DNA from: a virus
IMG/VR virus record: IMGVR_UViG_3300028734_000021
Coordinates: 4,094-68,093 of that record
DNA: 64,000 bases
Reading direction: 5' to 3' (one strand)
Shown: one piece after another, positions 4,066 through 59,955 of the stretch
Layout of the letters: every line of letters starts with the position of its first letter
Numbering within the stretch: position 1 is the first letter of the stretch
Notes under the pieces: model-generated
What the model was told of the DNA's origin: nothing
What the model saw: the letters and a program-made list of their open reading frames with translations, nothing else
Database searches by the model: none
Position numbers and translations under genes: made by a program

Positions 4066-4102
4066 AAATATAATATTTAACATAAAAACAAAAATCAAGT
4101 TT

Positions 4103-7446: not shown

Positions 7447-7770
7447 ATGGAAAATATTGATAAAAATTTAATTAACACAGATATTGATTGGCAAAAAGTT
7501 ATTGAAAAACAAGGTTTTAAAGTAATTCAAATAAAAACAATAAGACAAGGTTATGCACAATTAAAAATACATGAACCATCAGTTGATGATCAAACAATTA
7601 TTGAAGATTTTCATTACATAATGAATGATGAAGAAATATCAAAAATTGATAAATTAAAACAACCAATTGATTATGAAATTGTTATGAAAAATCGTATTGA
7701 TATATGGTGGAGAAATTTTATTGCTAAACAAATGGAATTAATTTTATGTAAATATCCTTTTAATTATTGA
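7447..7770 (+). CDS. Hypothetical protein
   Basis: Start moved to ATG 7447. Confidence 0.65.
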   Translation: MENIDKNLINTDIDWQKVIEKQGFKVIQIKTIRQGYAQLKIHEPSVDDQTIIEDFHYIMNDEEISKIDKLKQPIDYEIVMKNRIDIWWRNFIAKQMELILCKYPFNY

Positions 7771-7773
7771 AAT

Positions 7774-8271
7774 ATGGAAAATTTAAATTCAACACAGGTT
7801 GCAAATTTCTGTTATTGGTTAACAGAAAAAAATAATAATCGTGGACTTTTAGATAATAATGGAAAAAATCTTTTCAATGGAAAAGAAAGAATTAAACATA
7901 TTGACAATGTTTTACTTCCAGAATTTTTAAAGAAATATCCTGATGGAATTTTAACTGGTTGGAATGTTACTTTAAAAGATTCACTTCTTGAAAAAATTCA
8001 TTCAATAACTTTAAAAGATTGGAAATTAATTGCCAATTTTGCTGAAAATCGTAGAAATGAACCATTTCATGGATTAGCTAATTATGAACATGGAACAAGA
8101 TATGACTTTTCATCAGGTTATGCTTGTGTTTGTATTTCAGTATCTACTGAAAATAAAATATGTGTGTCAACAAGACGTAATGGTGCAAATGATGTTAAAG
8201 GACAATCAGAAATATTGAAAATTCTTAAAAAATATGAACTTGAAAATATATATTTTGTTAAAGGAGATTGA
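7774..8271 (+). CDS. Hypothetical protein
   Basis: Operon ORF. Confidence 0.7.
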   Translation: MENLNSTQVANFCYWLTEKNNNRGLLDNNGKNLFNGKERIKHIDNVLLPEFLKKYPDGILTGWNVTLKDSLLEKIHSITLKDWKLIANFAENRRNEPFHGLANYEHGTRYDFSSGYACVCISVSTENKICVSTRRNGANDVKGQSEILKILKKYELENIYFVKGD

Positions 8272-20077: not shown

Positions 20078-20523
20078 GGGGGTGTTTGGTTTTGACAGCA
20101 ATTTCAATAGGATTTAATGCAGCCGATGTTGAGTAAGTCATCGTTAAAAAGATTCACAATTATTAATCGACAAAAAACAAAACATTCAGAAGGATAACAA
20201 GGTTATTGCTTTTGTAAGTAACGTAGTTAAAAGTGCAATGTCTAAATGGAATGAAGTTGATGAAACTCCGGTTTATTCAATTAATCGTTCACAATTAGCA
20301 ATGGCTGTTTAATCTTAGATTTTTATTTTGTATTAAAAGGTTATGTGTTTGAGTAAAAACACTTTGGTGTGATTTGGAGGATAACTCACGTTTTCATTCA
20401 GTCCCAATATTTTGTTTGTTTTTAATTAATTGAAATGTTTAATCAATTAATATAAAATAAAATAAGCTGTAGATTTAAATTTGTTTGGTTGTTTGGACGG
20501 CGGTTCGACTCCGCCCACTTCCA
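20078..20523 (+). ncRNA. ssrA: tmRNA
   Basis: 5' GGGGGTG-TTTGGTTTTGAC; 3' TGGAC-GGCGG-TTCGACT-CCGCC-CACTTCC-A; G3:U70 Ala identity; tag frame 20169-20312 ending LAMAV*; CCA not encoded. Confidence 0.92.
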
Positions 20524-21266: not shown

Positions 21267-21338
21267 GGTCTTATCGAATATCGGTTAGTTCGTCAGGTTT
21301 TCATCCTGGAAAGTGGGGTTCGATTCCCCGTGAGACTA
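21267..21338 (+). tRNA. tRNA-Glu(TTC)
   Basis: GGTCTTA/TGAGACT acceptor; TCAGG-TTTTCAT-CCTGG anticodon arm; GGTTCGATTCC T arm. Confidence 0.88.
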
Positions 21339-21586
21339 CAAAAATTCTCACCGTATTATCAATTGAAGAACATAAAACAAGGATAAAACAATTTAGATAC
21401 CTTATTAAAGTTTCACAAAATTGACTATATAAATATCGTGAGAATTGTTTATTAAAATTGAGAGCTGTTACATTCACTCAATGAAAAAGTGTTTACCGTG
21501 CTTTGTTCAAACTTTTGTTTGGCACCCGTAACGGTTAACTGTTAATCTAACAGAAAATAAACATAAGTTTATTGAAATTGATTGGA

Positions 21587-21676
21587 GAAGAATAGGTGTG
21601 AGTGGTACTATGCACAGGAAAATAATTTTCAATAAAATAATTTTTCAGGGAATCGGTTCGAATCCGATATTCTTCA
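21587..21676 (+). tRNA. tRNA-like RNA with elongated anticodon arm (identity undetermined)
   Basis: Perfect GAAGAAT/ATTCTTC acceptor; ATCGG-TTCGAAT-CCGAT T arm; D loop AGTGGTA; anticodon arm replaced by a 13-bp AT stem with CAAT loop. Confidence 0.6.
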
Positions 21677-21993
21677 CAAGGAATTTTAGAAATAAAATTT
21701 CGTTTTTAAGTATATTAAATTAAGTTATAAGATGTTTTTAATGATAAATCATTAAAAATTTGATTTTCTATTTCTTTAATTATTTGGAAGTTGTTTGATC
21801 TGAATTAACAGGGATTTTGAGGAAATTACGGTATTTCCAAGCAACTTCTATTTATTGTTCTTGGGTTGGTTATTCACTTATCTATAAGAGAACTTTCTTT
21901 CAAGCAAGTAATAATGAATTTTTGGTCAATGTTGTAATTTTTGAACAAACCTAAAATTCATTTATTGAAAATTATTAAAAACAATATATTTTT

Positions 21994-22067
21994 GGGAATG
22001 TAGCTCAGTTGGTTAGAGCATCGCACTGTTAATGCGAAAGTCATTGGTTCGAGTCCAGTCTTGCCCG
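21994..22067 (+). tRNA. tRNA-Asn(GTT)
   Basis: TAGCTCAGTTGGTTAGAGC D arm; TCGCA-CTGTTAA-TGCGA; T arm; G73; two acceptor-stem mismatches. Confidence 0.85.
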
Positions 22068-22175
22068 CTAAACAATAATTTCAACGAAGCATGAAATATT
22101 TGTTGTAAGTTTAAAAACAACCGAGTTTTAAACTGAGAATATTAATTGTGGAGAAATTATTGTTTTTTAAAAATT

Positions 22176-22246
22176 TGTCCGATGGTGTAATGGTAGCACA
22201 CAAGTCTTTGGTTCTTGGTGTCCAGGTTCGAACCCTGGTTGGACAA
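22176..22246 (+). tRNA. tRNA-Gln(TTG)
   Basis: TGTCCGA/TTGGACA acceptor; CAAGT-CTTTGGT-TCTTG; CCAGG-TTCGAAC-CCTGG. Confidence 0.88.
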
Positions 22247-22328
22247 CAAATTTAAATAAATAAGTTCGTGAGAATGTCAGTATTTAAGTAATTCGTTTAT
22301 AGGTTTTGTGTTATATGTGTATTAAATT

Positions 22329-31305: not shown

Positions 31306-31728
31306 ATGATAGTGCAAATGTCAATTTTAAGAAAAGAAAATAATGATATTAATCAATTGAATTTTATGTCAATTCAATTAGATGATGATGAAAAATATTT
31401 TTGGACTAATCAAATAACATTCACACCTGAAGGATTTATTGATTTTTGCAAAAGACAACTAAAAGAATTATTACAAAATGAAACTGAAAATTCAAAATTA
31501 CAATTATTTTTTGTTGAAGATTTAGAATCAGAAGCAAAATGCATTTATGATTTAAAAGAAGATTATGTTGTTATTTTTGAAAGCGAAATAAAAATCTATC
31601 ATGAAATTTGCGAACGTGAATTGAATTTTATTCATTGGCATAATTATGCAAAAGAGTTGAAATGTGATTACAAACACAGACAAGTGTCAATTCCAGATTT
31701 AAATAATTTCACAGGTTTTGACGTTTAA
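31306..31728 (+). CDS. Hypothetical protein
   Basis: Last + strand ORF before the repeat array. Confidence 0.65.
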   Translation: MIVQMSILRKENNDINQLNFMSIQLDDDEKYFWTNQITFTPEGFIDFCKRQLKELLQNETENSKLQLFFVEDLESEAKCIYDLKEDYVVIFESEIKIYHEICERELNFIHWHNYAKELKCDYKHRQVSIPDLNNFTGFDV

Positions 31729-31801: not shown

Positions 31802-32112
31802 GAAAAACATGTTTACGTACCAGTAAATAATGAAAATAATGAACATATCAAGACATATATCAAGGAATTTAATTATATTACACATATGGTGTTTATTTAC
31901 AGGTGCGTTTTGTCTTCATATGTTTACTTACAGGTGCGTTCAAATGAATATTAAATTATTTTTGATACTCTCCGAAACTTGTTTGAAACTAATTTCCACA
32001 TAAATACGCACCAGTAAATTAGTCTTATATGTTATATTTCAAGACATATATCTTGTAATTAAATTCTATTCGATTATTATGCTTTTTTACTGGTGCGCTA
32101 TTTTGATTTGTA

Positions 32113-32155
32113 TACAAAAAATCCTGTCAGAACAAATCTGACAGGATTTTTTGTA
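32113..32155 (-). terminator. Intrinsic terminator (symmetric)
   Basis: TACAAAAAATCCTGTCAGA-ACAAA-TCTGACAGGATTTTTTGTA. Confidence 0.75.
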
Positions 32156-32208
32156 CAATAAATTACCTTGAATTAAGCAACTATTTTTCATTTGCTGTTG
32201 CACTTATA
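32113..32208 (-). ncRNA. Putative ~95-nt small RNA
   Basis: Bracketed by promoter motif and terminator; internal GCAAC/GTTGC hairpin; no ORF ends before the terminator. Confidence 0.4.
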
Positions 32209-32216
32209 TTGTATTA

Positions 32217-32246
32217 TATATATCCGAATAATCATTGAAATATAGG
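32217..32246 (-). promoter_or_regulatory. Phage promoter motif
   Basis: CCTATA-N15-GGATATATA on - strand. Confidence 0.65.
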
Positions 32247-32391
32247 CAAATTGGAAACTATTTTCAAGCTATTTTAAAACGCACCTGTAAAATATCAATA
32301 TATGTTGTAATTCAAGGCATATATCTTGTAATTAAATTCTGTTTGAATATGATAATAATTTACTGGTGCGTTTTTTTGTTTTGAAGTAAAA

Positions 32392-32465
32392 AAAATTACC
32401 GAATTTATATAATACTTAACTCCTTACTACAGTCGTCGATAAGTATTTTTAAATTCGGTAATTTT
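32392..32465 (-). terminator. Long hairpin after the 32936 gene
   Basis: AAAATTACCGAATTTA..AATACTTA / TAAGTATT..TAAATTCGGTAATTTT; A-run on + gives a U-tail on -. Confidence 0.6.
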
Positions 32466-32468
32466 ATT

Positions 32469-32936
32469 TTAGAACTTTTCCGAAAATTTTACTTCTTTTG
32501 AATTTTCCAAAATGCTTGCTTGTAAAGCAACTTCTTCATTTTTGAAAACTAATTTCGCAGCAGATAATTTTCTGTTTGAAATTTTCAACAAAGTATTTTC
32601 AACCAGGAATAAATTTTTGGTGAAATTTACTTTTTGAGAATTTGCAACAATGAATGCTTTCAAAGCAACTTCGTTATTTTTGAAAATCAATTTTGCAGCG
32701 GACAATTTTTTGGTTGAAACATTGTACAAAAGACCTTCAATCAAAAATAATTTTCGTTTTTCTGATTTTCTTTTCTTTTTTGTTTCGACAACAACTTCGG
32801 CAACAACTTGAGCAACAACTTGAGCAACAACTTCAGGAACAACTTCGATAACAACTTTTGGAGTACGTACTTTTTTAGTTTTTACAACTTCAGCAGGAAC
32901 GATAGAATTTTCGATTGAATTTTTAACTTTAGTCAT
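32469..32936 (-). CDS. Basic protein with two tandem ~46-aa domains
   Basis: LFLIEGLLYNVSTKKLSAAKLIFKNNEVALKAFIVANS / LFLVENTLLKISNRKLSAAKLVFKNEEVALQASILENS; VVAQ/VVAE repeats; own promoter and terminator. Confidence 0.8.
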   Translation of the reverse strand: MTKVKNSIENSIVPAEVVKTKKVRTPKVVIEVVPEVVAQVVAQVVAEVVVETKKKRKSEKRKLFLIEGLLYNVSTKKLSAAKLIFKNNEVALKAFIVANSQKVNFTKNLFLVENTLLKISNRKLSAAKLVFKNEEVALQASILENSKEVKFSEKF

Positions 32937-32985
32937 GATGTTTAATTTTTTTAGTGTTTATAATGTGTGTGTTATTATTGTATTA

Positions 32986-33015
32986 TATATATCCGTATAT
33001 TCTCGATTATATGGG
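32986..33015 (-). promoter_or_regulatory. Phage promoter motif
   Basis: CCCATA-N15-GGATATATA on - strand. Confidence 0.7.
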
Positions 33016-33211
33016 TAAAACGAAATTTATTTTCAAACTATTTTTGTTAAAACGCACCAGTATAATAACATATTTAAAACGCACCAGTAAAATACATTAC
33101 TTATGTACAAATCAAGCACAATATGTTACCATATTGTTTATATCGAATTTTGAATGATTTTTACTGGTGCGTTTTTATCTATTTGTTTCAAATCAGTTCC
33201 TTAATATACGA

Positions 33212-33242
33212 ACACGTATGTGTACATGTGTGCACACGTATG
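33212..33242. other. 31-bp alternating purine-pyrimidine tract at the array's symmetry centre
   Basis: ACACGTATGTGTACATGTGTGCACACGTATG. Confidence 0.8.
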
Positions 33243-33443
33243 GAGTTTCATTGAAGCGTACCTGTACTATAAATAAACAAGACAAAACGCACCTGTAAAT
33301 AAAGTCAAAATTTCAAGTATTTACAACTATCAAGACATATAACAAGTATATTGATATTGCAATATTATTTACAGGTGCGTTTTAACTTGAATCTGATACA
33401 GGTACGTATTTATGAAAATAGTTTGAAAATAAATTTCGTTTTG

Positions 33444-33473
33444 CCCATAATATCATGATTAATCGGATATATA
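33444..33473 (+). promoter_or_regulatory. Phage promoter motif
   Basis: CCCATA-N15-GGATATATA. Confidence 0.7.
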
Positions 33474-33555
33474 TAATATAAGAATACTACATTATAAATT
33501 CTTTAAATGTTATTTCAAACACTTAAATTTTTTAACAAAAGTTTTTCTTGTTTTC

Positions 33556-33585
33556 CCCATAATTATTAAAATATCGGGATATATA
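33556..33585 (+). promoter_or_regulatory. Phage promoter motif (second, tandem)
   Basis: CCCATA-N15-GGATATATA. Confidence 0.7.
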
Positions 33586-33637
33586 TAATACAAATAATTT
33601 ACACAACTTAATTTATAAACTTTTAAAACTTACAATC

Positions 33638-34315
33638 ATGTCAAAAAAAGAAAATGTTACCGTTCCTGAAGTTACCGTTCCTGAAGTTACCGTTCCTGAA
33701 ACTTCTGCTCCTGTTGAAATGACCATGACAGATGGTCTTGAATCAACTGATGATGTTCCCCTTCTTCCAACTGACGAAAATGGAAAAATTGATTTTTCGT
33801 CCCGTGCATATCTTGAATCACACAAACCCGTTGTTACTGTTGAATTTGCAAGTTCAAAGTTTGACCCAATTCGTGAAGCAAAAGTTCAGGATGGTTTGGA
33901 TGCTGTTTCTGAATTACTTGGTGACAAAATAAATCCACTGGTTATCCTTTTGGCTCGTTATTGGGAAATTAAACCTGCACGTTCTGCGATCAAGAAAATG
34001 ATCGACGCTGAAGCAAAAGCAAAAAATATACCTGAAGACAGGTATTTGCAAATTGATCTTCGCAAAAATGTTGATACCCTTGCTTCTTTGTCTCAGGCCA
34101 TTGACCGCATGAAATATGCAATTACATACTTCAAACCTCGTGCCGGTATCGATTCCAAACCTGTTTTCCAAATGATGTCAATCGATGGCGTTATGTTTAA
34201 CGTTGACTTGAATGTTTTGGCTATGGCTAAAGAAACTTACAAAGAAGACAGAGTTGCTCTGAAAGCTTTTTTAGCTGAAAATTCTGTAAAAGTTGTTATC
34301 GACGAATTACTTTAA
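33638..34315 (+). CDS. Hypothetical protein, paralog of 19423, sharing a C-terminal domain with 32936
   Basis: VTVPE x3 N-terminus; C-terminal MMSIDGVMFNVD..LAMAK..RVALKAFLAENS; two promoters. Confidence 0.85.
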   Translation: MSKKENVTVPEVTVPEVTVPETSAPVEMTMTDGLESTDDVPLLPTDENGKIDFSSRAYLESHKPVVTVEFASSKFDPIREAKVQDGLDAVSELLGDKINPLVILLARYWEIKPARSAIKKMIDAEAKAKNIPEDRYLQIDLRKNVDTLASLSQAIDRMKYAITYFKPRAGIDSKPVFQMMSIDGVMFNVDLNVLAMAKETYKEDRVALKAFLAENSVKVVIDELL

Positions 34316-34336
34316 TCAACTTACAAATACTAAAAT

Positions 34337-34366
34337 AAATGACCCGTTTTTAACGGGTCATTTTTT
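34337..34366 (+). terminator. Intrinsic terminator
   Basis: AAATGACCCGTT-TTT-AACGGGTCATTTTTT. Confidence 0.8.
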
Positions 34367-34698
34367 GTTTGAAACATGTTTACGTACCAGTAAAATTTTA
34401 TCATAATCACATTAAATTAAATTACTTGCAATATGTCTTGAAATACAAAACATAAGGTTATTTTACTGGTGCGTTTGAATACAAAATCATAGTATATATG
34501 TATATTATTCAAATCAATACATATATGATATTTCATTTAAACACACCTGTAGTATAATGAAACAAGACAAAACGCACCTGTAAAAAATTGATTAAAATGA
34601 CGTATTTGAAACAAACCTTGGTATTTGTCTTGAAAAATGATAAAACAAATAGTTTTACTGGTGCGTTTGAAAATAAATCGAAAATAACTCGAATTTTA

Positions 34699-34728
34699 CC
34701 CATACTTTTAGGATTAATCGGATATATA
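34699..34728 (+). promoter_or_regulatory. Phage promoter motif
   Basis: CCCATA-N15-GGATATATA. Confidence 0.7.
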
Positions 34729-34763
34729 TAATATTAGAATATACACTTTTAAAATATACTATT

Positions 34764-35009
34764 ATGATAGTCTGGAATGAATTTAATGAAAAAACTGACC
34801 TTCAAAAAATAATTGATTTGGTTGGAATGCAAACTGAACGTGAATCAAATCCAATTTTAGTAATGGTAAAATTTGCACTTTTTGATAATGTTTTTAGACC
34901 TTGTATGGCACATGTTAATTTATTCACAAATGTACCAAAAATTAATGTTGAAGGTATGTCTGGAAATGTTAAAATATCACATTGGACTGAAATTAATTTA
35001 CCTAAATAA
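34764..35009 (+). CDS. DUF551-like small protein
   Basis: N-terminal W and C-terminal ISHWTEINLP pattern. Confidence 0.55.
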   Translation: MIVWNEFNEKTDLQKIIDLVGMQTERESNPILVMVKFALFDNVFRPCMAHVNLFTNVPKINVEGMSGNVKISHWTEINLPK

Positions 35010-35017
35010 TATTTAAA

Positions 35018-35176
35018 ATGGAATATACTATTATCAAAAGTACTATTTGTAACGATGTTATTGCAAATATAAATGTACATTTAACTGAAGGTTGGAAAAT
35101 ATCTGGATCTTTACAAACAACAATTCTAAAAGGTTTCAATAACATAGAATATGCTCAGGCACTTATTCGTGAATAA
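35018..35176 (+). CDS. DUF1737-like small protein (52 aa, not in ORF track)
   Basis: MEYTII..INVHLTEGWKISGSL..YAQALIRE. Confidence 0.6.
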   Translation: MEYTIIKSTICNDVIANINVHLTEGWKISGSLQTTILKGFNNIEYAQALIRE

Positions 35177-35185
35177 TATTAATCG

Positions 35186-35219
35186 AATTTAGCTCGGAAT
35201 TAGTTCCGAGCTAAATTTT
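35186..35219 (+). terminator. Intrinsic terminator
   Basis: AATTTAGCTCGGAA-TTAG-TTCCGAGCTAAATT. Confidence 0.7.
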
Positions 35220-35552
35220 ACTCAAACCATATTTACGCACCAGCAAATTTTGATCATAATAACATACAATCATTTTCCTTATAATTCCACTTGAAAAATC
35301 AATTTACAAACTTATTTACTGGTGCGCTAATTTATATTCGATTGAATATATGTAATTTTTGCTCAAATACAATATAATATATATTTCATTCAAACGTACC
35401 TGTATTTTAGTGTATCAAGACAAAACGCACCAGTAAAAAACTAACTATATTTGAATATTTGAAATTTACTGGACATTTGTCTTGATAACTAAATTTAAAT
35501 TCATTTTTACTGGTGCGTTTAACTCAAATTTTTAAATATTTATCTATTTCTA

Positions 35553-35582
35553 CCCATATTTGTTGAATTAATCGGATATATA
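35553..35582 (+). promoter_or_regulatory. Phage promoter motif
   Basis: CCCATA-N15-GGATATATA. Confidence 0.7.
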
Positions 35583-35617
35583 TAATATAATAATATACAA
35601 TTTTAAAAAATACTAAA

Positions 35618-35743
35618 ATGGCACCACTTTACATCTTTATTTCGGTTATCACAATTATTTGTATTTTTTCTTTAGCAAACAAATTAGCTAAATTGAATAG
35701 CTCAAATTTTATTGTTAAAATTCTGAAAAATCTTTATTTTTAA
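35618..35743 (+). CDS. Small membrane peptide (41 aa)
   Basis: MAPLYIFISVITIICIFSLANK...; directly after promoter. Confidence 0.5.
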   Translation: MAPLYIFISVITIICIFSLANKLAKLNSSNFIVKILKNLYF

Positions 35744-35753
35744 ATTGAAATTT

Positions 35754-35876
35754 ATGGAATCAGTTTTTATATATTTAATAATATTTTTTGTTTGTTACTT
35801 GATTAAACATCATATACTAATAAAAAATAAAATATCAAATTTCATAAAATCATTTATTAATGCAAACAAAAAATAG
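35754..35876 (+). CDS. Small membrane peptide (40 aa)
   Basis: MESVFIYLIIFFVCYLIKHH... Confidence 0.45.
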   Translation: MESVFIYLIIFFVCYLIKHHILIKNKISNFIKSFINANKK

Positions 35877-35903
35877 TTCGGTAAACAAACCGAACTATTT
35901 TTT
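35868..35903 (+). terminator. Intrinsic terminator
   Basis: AAAAAATAGTTCGGT / ACCGAACTATTTTTT. Confidence 0.7.
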
Positions 35904-36037
35904 ACTCAATTTCAAATTAACGTACCAGTGAATTTTCATTATAATCACATAAAATTAATTTCCTTGTCAAATGTCTTGAAAACTAAATTTAAATCATATT
36001 TTACTGGTGTGTTTACTTGAAAATAAACTATGTTCTA

Positions 36038-36067
36038 CCCATTATTTAATGATTAATCGGATATATA
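36038..36067 (+). promoter_or_regulatory. Phage promoter motif
   Basis: CCCATT-N15-GGATATATA. Confidence 0.65.
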
Positions 36068-36100
36068 TTAATAAAAATACTAATTTAAAACAAATATATT

Positions 36101-36334
36101 ATGTCAGAAGAAAACTAAATTAAAATTCCATTAACATTTGAAGAGAAAAAACAATTGTTAAATGAAATTGTTAAAGATTATGGAATGGGATTTATGACTA
36201 TTCACGGATTTATTGCACAAATATTTACAATATCTTGGAATTAGTTTGAATTTAGTTTGATTGAACAAACATTAGATAAATGTTTTGAATTTAAACTTGA
36301 TTCTTTTCAAATATTTTTGGGATTAAAAAAATAA
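36101..36334 (+). pseudogene. Probable decayed small gene with two in-frame stops
   Basis: MSEEN*IKIPLTFEEKKQLLNEIVKDYGMGF...SWN*FEFSLIEQ...GLKK*, between promoter and terminator. Confidence 0.4.
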
Positions 36335-36459
36335 AATTAAGTAAAAATTAGCTCGAATCTTTAACGATTCGAGTTAATTTTTACTTAATTTTAAGATTTT
36401 CTGGTGCGTCAAATTGAAAAATAAAAAAAAAATAGTTCAGATTAACTCTGAACTATTTT
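36333..36459. terminator. Two hairpins at the convergence of + and - transcription
   Basis: Stem of about 27 bp at 36333-36392, and AAAATAGTTCAGA / TCTGAACTATTTT at about 36429-36459. Confidence 0.65.
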
Positions 36460-36497: not shown

Positions 36498-36986
36498 TTA
36501 TTTATCTACATTTGGACAAAAGTAACTTGGATGTGAATGTTCACCAAGAGTATGATTACAAACAATACAAACTTCATCATAATTTCGTACTCTTTCACCA
36601 ATGAAATTATCTGCATATGTTGATAATAACCATGGAATATCTATGTTGATATTTTTTGCTCGTATTATTATTGCAGCTTCTTTCGATTCTTGTTTGATAC
36701 AATTTTGAACCATATCATGAATATTTTTCTGACCTTCTTCATCTAACAATTGATCAAATTTTTTATCCAGCATTTCATCAATTTCATCAAGTTCATTAAT
36801 CATTTCATTTTCATCAGAATAAATAGATAAAGCTGCGATCAAACCATCAAAATCTTCTGACTCATCATAAGCATCAGCAAGTTCAGTTACAAATACTATT
36901 GAAAATTTAAAACGTTCAGCAAGAGATTGTAAATATTCACTACGAGTTTGAAACCCTTTTTTTATTGAAACTTCGTTTGTACTCAT
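36498..36986 (-). CDS. Acidic hypothetical protein with C-terminal Cys/His motif
   Basis: RSEYLQSLAE..EDFDGLI motif recalled from phage proteins; CIVCNH..H..C tail. Confidence 0.7.
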   Translation of the reverse strand: MSTNEVSIKKGFQTRSEYLQSLAERFKFSIVFVTELADAYDESEDFDGLIAALSIYSDENEMINELDEIDEMLDKKFDQLLDEEGQKNIHDMVQNCIKQESKEAAIIIRAKNINIDIPWLLSTYADNFIGERVRNYDEVCIVCNHTLGEHSHPSYFCPNVDK

Positions 36987-39946: not shown

Positions 39947-42064
39947 TTATACGTTAAAAGAATTATTTAATTCATTATCTAATGGATTTTGACTTACTTC
40001 ATCATAAACATCATTAAGTCTTTTACCACTGATAAGATTTTGTTCAATTTCTTCAACATCAGTTTCATCAAATTTTATTAATTCACTACAATTTGTTTGA
40101 ATATAATTATATAAAAATTCTAAACCTGCTTTTATTCCAGGATATTCGAGAAAAGCTGCTTTTAATTTTTCCTGTAATGTTTTTATTTTGGTTGACATTG
40201 CTGATTGAGTGAATGTTTTATTTGTTGCTCCAAAACTTGCATAATAATCGGATAAAACAACACCCATTTCTTCTTGTTTATACATATTATTGGCATTCAA
40301 TTTTCCTCCACCAATAACATCATTTTTAACTTCTAAACCATATAACATTTTAAACAGTTTATAATCATATTTGTTAAATATTTTCTTCTTGGTAAATTCT
40401 TTTTTACCTGTATCTGAATCTATTTTTGTTTCAAATAAATTAAATAATTGTTTAACAGATTTATATAATTCTTCAAATTCAAATCCAATTTCAGCACTCA
40501 TACTTGAAGAAGCAACATTAGCCCAAATATCTGCATTTTGTCCACCTTCAGAACCTCCAATTATATCTGAATATTTACTTTCAGTAACAACATTTGCTGG
40601 TTTTTCAATACTTGACATTCCATCGAGTAATGTGTCAAGCATTTCTTTTGGAAGATCTTTTAATTCAGGATTATTTTTAAGAAAAGATTTTAATTGTCCA
40701 TCATAAAAATGTACAATTGTTGCCATTGAACTACCAGAAATAGTACCACCTGAACTAAGTTCATACATTCCTCTTTTAATTGCTCCAGTAACATATCTGT
40801 GTGCAAAACCATTAAAACTTATTGCTGAATTGGATATTTTTTGTGTTTTATACCATTTATCAATAGCTACTGATAAACCAACAAGACCATAAGCAACACA
40901 ATCATCATAAAGATGCATCATATTTAATTTTGAACAGGAATTATAAGCAATTCCTTTAACATATTCAATATTGGCTGAAGCCAACATTTCTTTTGGTTTT
41001 TGTTCTTCAACTGTTTCAAAATCAAAAATTTCAAACATAACATTTGTTATATCTTGATTACCTTTTAATTTTGATATTTCATTTGCCGATTCAATTTTAA
41101 TAGTATCAAGTTTATTAACTAAATCAGTAATTTTATTTTCAGGTGTTGCAAGTATTAAAAGTTTTTTTAATTGATTCAAATTATAATTAGATACTTCTTT
41201 TGGTAATAAATCAACTATTTCAGATATGTAACCACAAAGATTAGCATATTCTTGTTTTAACGTTAATGGTGCTATTTCAGTTTCAGTTTCATTATCCAAA
41301 TATTCATCAATATCAATTTCTTCTTCAACATCATTATAACTATCAATTTCTTCAAAATAATCTATTTTATTGTCAATTTCCATGTCTGGAAAATTAAGAA
41401 TCAATAATTTACGTAAAAGTTTCATTTTAGATACCAATGAGTTTGGATTAACTAAATTGAATTCATTTTCAAGAGCTTTTCGTTGTTCTTTTAATGATTT
41501 AAGTAACTCTGAATTTTTAATTTTTTCATCACTAACAACTTTTTCTTCTTTCCAATTTTTATCCTTATAAAGTTTAACAAATTTATTTTTAGTTAATTCA
41601 AGATTATCTATCATTTCTTGAGTTTTAATAACTAAATCCTTTTCGTTTGAAAATTTATAATTAGCAAGTTCTGATTTTAAAATATCCAATTGATTTTGAA
41701 GAACTTTAAATTGTGGTGATTTTTTCAAATAACTTTCAAGTTTTTCTTTTGCATGTCTTGAAAGAGCATTAGTTGTTGTTCCAACTTCTCCATATTTTTG
41801 CATTTTATTAAGAGTGACACTTTTACCTCTTTCCATAATATTATTATATTCTGAAGAAGAAACTTTATCTGTATAATGAATATCAGATTCTTCAGTAGAT
41901 AATTTGGATTTTTTTGTTTTATTAACAATAACTTTTTTACCTTCTTTTGTTGTTCCAATAACAACATCTTCATCATTACTTACTGGAATTTCACTTGCAA
42001 AAATTTGTTCATTATCCAAATAGGAATCAATATCAGGAATTTCGCTTTCAAAATCTTGTGTCAT
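39947..42064 (-). CDS. Large sigma70-family (group 3-like) RNA polymerase sigma factor
   Basis: ANIEYVKGIA..DDCVAYGLVGLSVAIDK..FNGFAHRYVTGAIKR (region 2); KLFKMLYGL..KQEEMG..TQSAMSTKIKTLQEKLK (region 4); ~360-aa N-terminal extension. Confidence 0.7.
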   Translation of the reverse strand: MTQDFESEIPDIDSYLDNEQIFASEIPVSNDEDVVIGTTKEGKKVIVNKTKKSKLSTEESDIHYTDKVSSSEYNNIMERGKSVTLNKMQKYGEVGTTTNALSRHAKEKLESYLKKSPQFKVLQNQLDILKSELANYKFSNEKDLVIKTQEMIDNLELTKNKFVKLYKDKNWKEEKVVSDEKIKNSELLKSLKEQRKALENEFNLVNPNSLVSKMKLLRKLLILNFPDMEIDNKIDYFEEIDSYNDVEEEIDIDEYLDNETETEIAPLTLKQEYANLCGYISEIVDLLPKEVSNYNLNQLKKLLILATPENKITDLVNKLDTIKIESANEISKLKGNQDITNVMFEIFDFETVEEQKPKEMLASANIEYVKGIAYNSCSKLNMMHLYDDCVAYGLVGLSVAIDKWYKTQKISNSAISFNGFAHRYVTGAIKRGMYELSSGGTISGSSMATIVHFYDGQLKSFLKNNPELKDLPKEMLDTLLDGMSSIEKPANVVTESKYSDIIGGSEGGQNADIWANVASSSMSAEIGFEFEELYKSVKQLFNLFETKIDSDTGKKEFTKKKIFNKYDYKLFKMLYGLEVKNDVIGGGKLNANNMYKQEEMGVVLSDYYASFGATNKTFTQSAMSTKIKTLQEKLKAAFLEYPGIKAGLEFLYNYIQTNCSELIKFDETDVEEIEQNLISGKRLNDVYDEVSQNPLDNELNNSFNV

Positions 42065-59580: not shown

Positions 59581-59955
59581 TTATTCTTTTGAGTTTGAAA
59601 ATAAAGCATCTAAAGATATTTGTTTTCCTTTTCCTCTTGTTATTTGTTTAAAATGTAATTTCATATCATTTGAAATTATCGTAGTATAAAAAGAAAAAAG
59701 ATTATCTGATTTTTCTGGATTAAATTTATTCCATTTTTGCCAAGCTTCAGATACTCCAAAATTAATACAGGCATTTAAATCACATTTATTATTTGAATTA
59801 AATGTTGTTGCAAAATTTTTAGCTATTTTTTGAAATAAAACAACTAATTTTTCTGTAGGAACTCCAAGTCCTATTGACTTATCATATTCAGTCAATAGGA
59901 TTTTTGGATCAAGATAAATATTTTGTTTCTTTTTATCAATATAATTTTCAACCAT
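59581..59955 (-). CDS. Late-transcription sigma factor (T4 gp55-like)
   Basis: YLDPKILL..LFQKIA..WNKFNPEKSDNLFSFYTTII. Confidence 0.65.
   Translation of the reverse strand: MVENYIDKKKQNIYLDPKILLTEYDKSIGLGVPTEKLVVLFQKIAKNFATTFNSNNKCDLNACINFGVSEAWQKWNKFNPEKSDNLFSFYTTIISNDMKLHFKQITRGKGKQISLDALFSNSKE

Follow-up and report, generated by a model that had tools for sequence, protein, structure and literature searches.

What does an array of repeated, oriented DNA elements do at one locus of a large phage genome? The elements considered here are ten units of 93–95 base pairs (bp) at positions 31815–36012 of the window, which is the whole stretch of 64 kb that was analysed (positions 4,094–68,093 of IMG/VR record IMGVR_UViG_3300028734_000021). 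Each unit is made of two inverted 13-bp arms and an off-centre core of 16 bp. The feature is real and is conserved across its clade. The reading we favour, and to which we give about an even chance, is that the unit is an upstream nucleoprotein regulatory module belonging to an array of early or middle gene cassettes.

The arm ACGYACCWGTAAA was found 25 times in the window when up to two mismatches were allowed, against 1.85 matches expected (standard deviation 1.48), and none of 100 shuffles reached 25. All 25 matches were confined to 31815–36409. With at most one mismatch, 23 matches were detected in the whole record of 68,093 bp, every one of them at 31815–36409, and a reversed-pattern control gave none. 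The arms are separated by spacers of 67–69 bp within the units, and their inverted repeat extends to about 16 bp. The 16-bp core lies 21 nucleotides (nt) from the promoter-side arm, a gap that is fixed, and 30–32 nt from the other arm. Its last four bases are CTTG in nine of ten units and CAAG in unit 5. Only the arms and the core are palindromic, and the site as a whole is not. The short side is on the left in units 1–4 and on the right in units 5–10. Extra arms were located 31 bp from units 1, 5, 7 and 9, separated from them by (C/G)AAGACAAA and with three mismatches in two cases, and 27 bp from units 4 and 5 (at 33052 and 33395). An earlier note on this DNA had described the inverted arms, the two unequal distances to the core, the flip in polarity at about 33.2 kb and the extra arms. 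Our re-measurement recovered ten arm pairs and reproduced the other three properties.

Homologues of a 225-amino-acid (225-aa) protein encoded in the array gave access to related loci, 6 from viral contigs and 24 from metagenome contigs. Units were present in all 31 sources examined, the window included. A general finder identified 86 units in 23 non-redundant sources, in which the guanine-plus-cytosine (GC) content of the locus ranged from 22 to 41%. The outer distance between CACC and GGTG was 85–91 bp overall and 87–89 bp in 72 units. The arms are lineage-specific (ACGCACCWGTAAA, ACACACCWGTAAA, ACGCACCGGTAAA, TTCACACCRTAAA, TTGTCCACCGGTA and ACGCACCAGAA), with arm types of the clade including CGCACCWGT, CACACCATA and TCCACCGGT; the central palindrome YAAGnnATATnnCTTR was retained across lineages. 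A core score of at least 8 of 10 was obtained for 45 of the 86 units, and in 40 of these 45 the core centre lies 3.5–6.5 bp off the dyad. The half-distances from the core centre are 38–41 bp on one side and 48–51 bp on the other, a difference of about one helical turn. Spacings between arms were tallied over 19 loci (L018 and L048 were left out) with loose two-mismatch patterns, which add noise outside the arrays. Adjacent convergent arms were spaced 84–88 bp apart in 110 of 128 pairs, and adjacent arms of the same orientation exactly 31 bp apart in 31 of 126 and 27 bp apart in 13 of 126. The spacing that the earlier note proposed to look for in related phages was thus kept in the relatives and not lost. 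Its suggestion that fixed geometry implies a multi-subunit protein–DNA complex is strongly supported by this comparison, in which the spacing and the off-centre core persist and the arms change. The comparison also fits its failure to match the array to any named element.

The arms form a single region in all four records that were scanned whole, the confinement that the earlier note had expected. They span 4.6 kb of 68,093 bp in the source record, 2.5 kb of a 68,298-bp record and 2.3 kb of an 88,302-bp record. The fourth record, which has 160,875 bp and a terminal repeat of 55 bp, contains them at 84083–89233, and its array is located at a strand switch. In a search for host copies, the window-type unit had no match in 185,579 species genomes. 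The unit type of the 41%-GC lineage had 16 single matches there, 13 in Actinomycetota or related high-GC taxa, three in other phyla and none in Bacteroidota, which by rough estimate is about as many as chance gives.

Terminal inverted repeats of this kind resemble those of miniature inverted-repeat transposable elements, and the arms can close a 13-bp stem (fold z-scores from -1.6 to -7.6); the units might then be relics without present function, or else a structured RNA. Copies of a transposable or Correia-like element would be expected to scatter, and those found here are gathered in a single place in all four records, show no target-site duplication and have an inverted repeat that runs on into the flanks. 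As to RNA, nine Rfam matches were obtained at E values up to 1, all under the gathering score and none on a unit. The predicted folds have only the arm stem in common. The variable arm position agrees in 38 of 47 A/T units, compared with 37.3 expected under independence, and there is no covariation. With the units placed after terminators and upstream of promoters, and their geometry conserved across lineages of 22–41% GC, neither explanation deserves much credence, and we consider both together extremely unlikely.

Judged by sequence motifs, the units lie within a succession of short transcription units. The window contains 16 copies of a two-box motif, CYYATW-N15-GGAWATA (0.26 expected), each on the strand of the surrounding genes and each with a spacer of exactly 15 nt (4036–39056). 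Seven copies are inside the array and nine precede genes of the 4–39 kb region; beyond 39.1 kb, in the structural block, no copy was found. From this strand bias and placement we conclude that the motif behaves like a class of early or middle promoters in this phage. Copies in the array are near-identical (ATTAATCGGATATATATAATA). A conserved box upstream of the motif differs between the two sets, being ..GTCTGAAT.. outside the array and TTGAAAATA.. inside it. Eight terminator-like sites were detected in the region against 1.3 expected, and further hairpins followed by T-runs are visible in the sequence. The recurring order is a terminator, a unit (2, 6, 8 and 10), in many cases another unit, this one with an extra arm (1, 5, 7 and 9), a gap of 25–36 bp, the promoter motif, and one or two small open reading frames (ORFs). 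A promoter-like motif directly follows six of the ten units.

The relation between units and promoter-like motifs was also observed beyond the window. In its lineage group, 27 promoter motifs were found within 200 bp of an arm. The nearest upstream arm ends 24–27 bp before the motif in eight of them and 32–38 bp before it in another eight, two clusters about one helical turn apart, and it has the orientation of the right arm of a unit in 24 of 27. A different promoter type, TTTG-N17-22-TAnnTTTG, comes after the units in the 41%-GC lineage; we take it to be the Bacteroidota housekeeping promoter consensus. Eleven copies were present (0.9 expected), five of them 32–47 bp after a unit. Since units are tied to more than one promoter type, they would be the target of a factor acting on RNA polymerase or on DNA topology and not a part of the promoter. 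At 11 of 13 tandem gene junctions the unit points in the direction of the genes. Among the four kinds of function listed in the earlier note, enhancer-like activator sites fit these results best, with units standing after terminators, 24–38 bp upstream of promoter-like motifs and oriented with transcription; site-specific recombination, also on that list, is weakened.

On the right side of the array all cassettes are on the plus strand. Unit 5 (94 bp, 33287–33380, the innermost rightward unit) has a degenerate extra arm with three mismatches (33256–33268, plus strand, 31 bp off, CAAGACAAA between) and a second one on its promoter side (33395–33407, minus strand, 27 bp off). It is followed by a tandem pair of promoter-like motifs (33444–33471 and 33556–33583), the gene for the 225-aa protein (P0002, 33638–34315), which is the sole gene common to arrays of different lineages, and an intrinsic terminator (34337–34363). 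Tandem promoter-like pairs about 100 bp apart precede this gene in three distant lineages whose promoter types differ (L018 5608–5740; window 33444–33583; L012 8576–8680). The next junction carries the terminator-proximal unit 6 (93 bp, 34382–34474) and the promoter-proximal unit 7 (95 bp, 34572–34666) with its degenerate extra arm (34541–34553, plus strand, three mismatches, 31 bp off, CAAGACAAA between). A promoter-like motif 32 bp after unit 7 (34699–34726) serves two ORFs (34764–35009 and 35018–35176). A terminator-like hairpin with a T-run follows (35186–35219); it was recognised by eye and lies under the GC threshold of the scan. The same arrangement is repeated by unit 8 (93 bp, 35235–35327, terminator-proximal, with the most degenerate core), the extra arm of unit 9 (35394–35406, plus strand, 31 bp off, CAAGACAAA between), the promoter-proximal unit 9 itself (94 bp, 35425–35518), a motif 34 bp further on (35553–35580), two ORFs (35618–35743 and 35745–35876) and another hairpin with a T-run seen by eye (35870–35903). 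Unit 10 (93 bp, 35920–36012) is followed after 25 bp by a motif (36038–36065) with no ORF of at least 40 codons before the intrinsic terminator that closes the last cassette (36340–36385). A lone arm on the minus strand (36397–36409) marks the right edge. The last cassette (36038–36385), with its promoter motif and terminator, contains only a frame of five codons after the ATG at 36101; it has the look of a cassette that decayed or of a further non-coding transcript.

The units and motifs on the left side are on the minus strand. Unit 4 (94 bp, 33079–33172), the innermost leftward unit, has an extra arm on its promoter side (33052–33064, plus strand, 27 bp off), and beyond it are a two-box motif (32988–33015) and a 155-aa ORF (P0001, 32469–32936) that the motif would serve. 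Unit 3 (93 bp, 32279–32371) is followed by another two-box motif, CCTATA-N15-GGATATA (32219–32246). About 90 nt past this motif, with no ORF between, is a strong bidirectional hairpin (32114–32155), and it is possible that 32114–32246 is a small RNA gene on the minus strand; Rfam gave only weak matches at 32114–32246, far under threshold. Unit 2 (93 bp, 32006–32098) comes after this hairpin in the minus direction. Unit 1 (94 bp, 31815–31908) is of the promoter-proximal type, with an extra arm on the minus strand (31927–31939, 31 bp off, GAAGACAAA between); no promoter comes after it, and it faces the terminator of the plus gene block.

The earlier note had placed the array where long plus and minus gene blocks converge and had described it as mirror-symmetric. 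The flanking blocks do converge on the array: the plus block ends at 31728 and the minus block at 36498, and the array meets them at about 31.75 and 36.45 kb, where transcription converges. The array itself diverges from about 33.2 kb. Its cassettes are on the minus strand to the left of that point and on the plus strand to the right, and the mirror symmetry, although observed, is therefore divergent transcription and no independent property. At the divergence point lies a strictly alternating purine–pyrimidine tract of 31 bp (33212–33242), the sole such tract (at least 16 nt, with at least five G/C) in the window. It is prone to form Z-DNA or a cruciform. In 7 of 17 sources, the window included, a G/C-containing alternating tract was found about 400–750 bp ahead of the 225-aa gene, and was the sole such tract in each (L016 5577–5601; L018 5236–5258; L031 5580–5606; L033 2085–2105; L046 5406–5431; L051 5418–5433).

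Such a centre raises the possibility of a replication origin, in which the arms would be initiator sites flanking the tract at 33212–33242 and divergent transcription would activate initiation. An origin would suit a locus found once per genome, with a structure-prone tract set between arrays of protein sites, strong divergent promoters flanking the tract and a conserved 225-aa gene that could encode the initiator; the recurrence of the tract upstream of that gene points the same way. Origins of the iteron type group their initiator sites beside an unwinding element and an initiator gene. However, the units extend over 2.1–8.5 kb in 13 of 14 sources measured (0.9 kb in the truncated one), have expressed cassettes between them and track terminator–promoter junctions. 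Their interiors vary, no unwinding element is conserved across them, and neither Pfam nor PHROGs revealed an initiator or helicase-loader family in the array. The cumulative GC skew, a check suggested in the earlier note, does peak at the array, but the peak simply reflects the gene strand. We consider an origin unlikely.

Returning to transcriptional control, each unit is proposed to be a docking site for a sequence-specific complex that would control short, independently transcribed cassettes, these being one conserved 225-aa gene and lineage-specific ORFans. The module holds two to four 13-bp arms and one 16-bp palindromic core in fixed register, and it immediately follows the terminator that closes the cassette before it. 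The arms may be bound by a phage-encoded protein that co-evolves with the arm sequence, and the core may be bound and bent by a more conserved factor or by a second domain of the arm binder. Bending at the core would bring the two arms together. The complex would then act on RNA polymerase at the adjacent promoter, or insulate neighbouring cassettes, and promoters of the array would thereby get a level or timing unlike that of the nine promoters of the same class outside it. The sequence fits activation as well as shut-off or insulation. If this proposal is correct, transcripts of the cassettes would start about 7–10 nt after GGATATATAATA, stop at the hairpins and leave the units unread.

A number of observations weigh against this proposal. 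Units 1, 2, 6 and 8 have no promoter directly downstream, and units 1 and 2 have none at all. The nine same-class promoter motifs outside the array lack units, and units are therefore not required for promoter recognition. Two of the 13 units at tandem junctions point the wrong way, and at divergent junctions only five of eight point to the nearer gene. The promoters and most of the terminators are motif calls with no mapped ends, and a generic sigma-70 scan showed no enrichment (42 sites, 41 expected). Among 23 sequencing runs listed, no RNA run was found to contain the region. The search for a binder gave neither a family nor a convincing fold match for the 225-aa and 155-aa proteins: the 225-aa protein belongs to no family in Pfam or PHROGs, and for a model of the 155-aa protein Foldseek returned nothing and the best VIA Z score was 2.3.

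The 225-aa and 155-aa proteins are nevertheless the first candidate binders on account of their position, conservation and basic stretch. The 225-aa protein had 35 homologues in a search of 5.8 billion proteins and 74 cluster representatives among 1.84 billion, none of them named or assigned to a Pfam or PHROG family. Pfam gave nothing over the cut-off for ten distant or longer members of the family, tblastn gave no match in 50,697 phage records, and the ESM Atlas contained no usable match. In an AlphaFold2 model (predicted local distance difference test, pLDDT, 75.1) the N-terminus, which is acidic, is disordered; the other parts are a helical domain and, at the C-terminus, a small domain of a hairpin plus two helices. 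Foldseek found no match for the model in PDB or BFVD at E ≤ 0.001. A wide VIA search gave helical bundles (best Z 5.2), which were judged non-specific. The 155-aa protein (model pLDDT 69.1) has a basic stretch, KKKRKSEKRK, and after it the ~45-aa domain found at the C-terminus of the 225-aa protein, here in two copies; a hidden Markov model of this domain matched only these two ORFs within the window. A guess that the domain in the 155-aa protein is ribbon-helix-helix-like was neither supported nor excluded by the fold search. In L012 the ORF divergent from the 225-aa gene (7488–7907, minus strand) encodes a DUF6011 protein (E 8.9e-15) instead of the 155-aa protein, and this position is therefore exchangeable. 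A more specific proposal, speculative and in our estimate rather unlikely, is that the 225-aa protein, perhaps with its tandem-domain paralogue of 155 aa, would bind arms and core at once and fold about 90 bp into a defined loop. Each cassette would become an insulated, separately timed transcription domain of an undescribed DNA-organising system, with the central Z-DNA-prone tract absorbing supercoiling from divergent transcription.

A protein that wraps about 90 bp around a bent core could also serve ends apart from transcription, the array being centromere-like or a site of condensation, packaging or pausing of injection. The arm–bend–arm design with its asymmetry of one turn, the quantised arm lattice, the clustering at one locus per genome and the array-edge units without promoters are all in line with such an architectural site. 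The tight relation of the units to terminators and promoters would not be expected of it. ParB_N (PF02195) and HU/IHF genes were both absent from the four records, three of which are fragments (controls were positive in 11/14 and 10/14 genomes, respectively). The portal is T4-like, and T4-type phages package by headful and are not known to use a fixed site. Overall, we regard an architectural role of this kind as quite improbable.

The gene content of the arrays raises the further question of recombination. Among 14 larger sources, 13 have arrays with a member of the one family that lineages share, the 225-aa proteins and their 155-aa paralogue. The other ORFs are unique or common only to close pairs (15 small clusters, 13 of them linking L018 with L048). 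Units bracketing each cassette might be substrates for the shuffling of such genes, either site-specifically, with arm-type sites and a palindromic crossover core as in attP or attC, or homologously; the core does resemble two inverted half-sites around a short spacer. No recombinase was visible to the earlier note, and the profile searches agree: tyrosine (PF00589) and serine (PF00239) recombinases were each absent from the same four records, with controls positive in 14/14 and 12/14 genomes, respectively. None of 45 near-identical unit interiors was inverted between loci, which together with the lack of both recombinases speaks against an inverton. The one indel that was dissected (768 bp, L018 versus L050) removes two ORFs within a cassette by microhomology, not at units. 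The cassettes have their own promoter-like motifs; this, the lack of PF00589 and the incomplete palindromy of the site are at variance with integron attC sites. Recombination as the function of the units therefore appears very unlikely.

A role in transcription would be of wider interest. Very little is known about the scheduling of early genes in uncultured jumbo phages of low-GC and Bacteroidota-type hosts, and the module offers a sharply defined DNA target whose geometry is conserved across phages of peat, lake and gut. Its link to one conserved gene makes the protein–DNA partnership testable in vitro without phage culture. If the 225-aa family does bind the units, it would represent a new DNA-binding fold and provide a portable regulatory part for Bacteroidota-type promoters.

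The source is an uncultured PAU/PTm1-like jumbo myovirus. Its record, 23.6% GC, has a CheckV completeness of 30%, which puts the whole genome at about 220 kb. Genes of the window include those for a T4-type portal, family B polymerase, dCMP deaminase, ligase OB domain and DEAD_2 helicase, and a gp55-like late sigma factor is supported at 59581–59955. The closest isolates by portal identity are distant (Sphingomonas phage PAU, 29%; Tenacibaculum phage PTm1, 27%), and megablast of 12 kb against the 50,697 phage records gave no match. A 705-aa ORF at 39947–42064, considered as a sigma factor candidate, had no Pfam, PHROG or PDB sequence match. ARAGORN predicted a phage transfer-messenger RNA with a 25-residue tag (AMSKWNEVDETPVYSINRSQLAMAV) and tRNA-Glu, tRNA-Asn and tRNA-Gln (20078–20523 and 21267–22247).

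How does the array compare with known systems? The closest in layout are the promoter early stem-loop (PeSL) cassettes of T4-type phages, for which homologous shuffling of gene cassettes has been proposed (PMC4122927) and which are also covered as regulatory cassettes in PMC2839356. Both systems consist of composite elements of terminator and promoter that recur in the gaps between genes, within an ORFan-rich, variable part of a large myovirus genome, and that bracket one to a few small genes. The PeSL described there is only a stem-loop with a sigma-70-like promoter, whereas in our array one or two 94-bp units separate terminator and promoter, and the promoter-like motif CYYATW-N15-GGAWATA is not the sigma-70 consensus. 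In addition, unlike the PeSLs of those accounts, the array is a single locus per genome. The one indel examined here, a single case, is not at the repeats. Intergenic repeats of 58 and 29 bp in halovirus HF2 likewise form families that mark the starts of transcription units (PMC8707807). They are reported to be promoters themselves, whereas our units precede a promoter motif that is distinct from them and is also present where they are absent.

Other parallels concern the nucleoprotein design. The ~90-bp, asymmetric unit with helically phased sites on both sides of a central element is similar to P1 parS with IHF and to lambda attP. In P1 parS, ParB and IHF wrap about 90 bp around a bent core. 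Our system differs in that searches of the phage records turned up no gene for ParB, HU/IHF or an integrase, and in having ten copies per genome, each tied to a transcription unit. The p4/p6 switch region of phi29 is one locus with short inverted repeats, and the stoperators of mycobacteriophages are 13-bp sites that stand singly and are scattered over the genomes of temperate phages. In both, phage proteins on repeated, oriented intergenic sites bend or block DNA and so time transcription; in sequence and size their sites do not resemble the units. A full-text literature search found no counterpart of a 94-bp arm–core–arm module with one-turn asymmetry and restriction to a single locus, and titles and abstracts on the nearest isolates made no mention of such repeats. 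What appears to be new, as read from motifs and gene order, is the position of the units between intrinsic terminators and a two-box promoter-like motif, with a polarity that follows local transcription. Their conserved geometry points to an undescribed protein–DNA complex, most likely one controlling the transcription of the cassettes.

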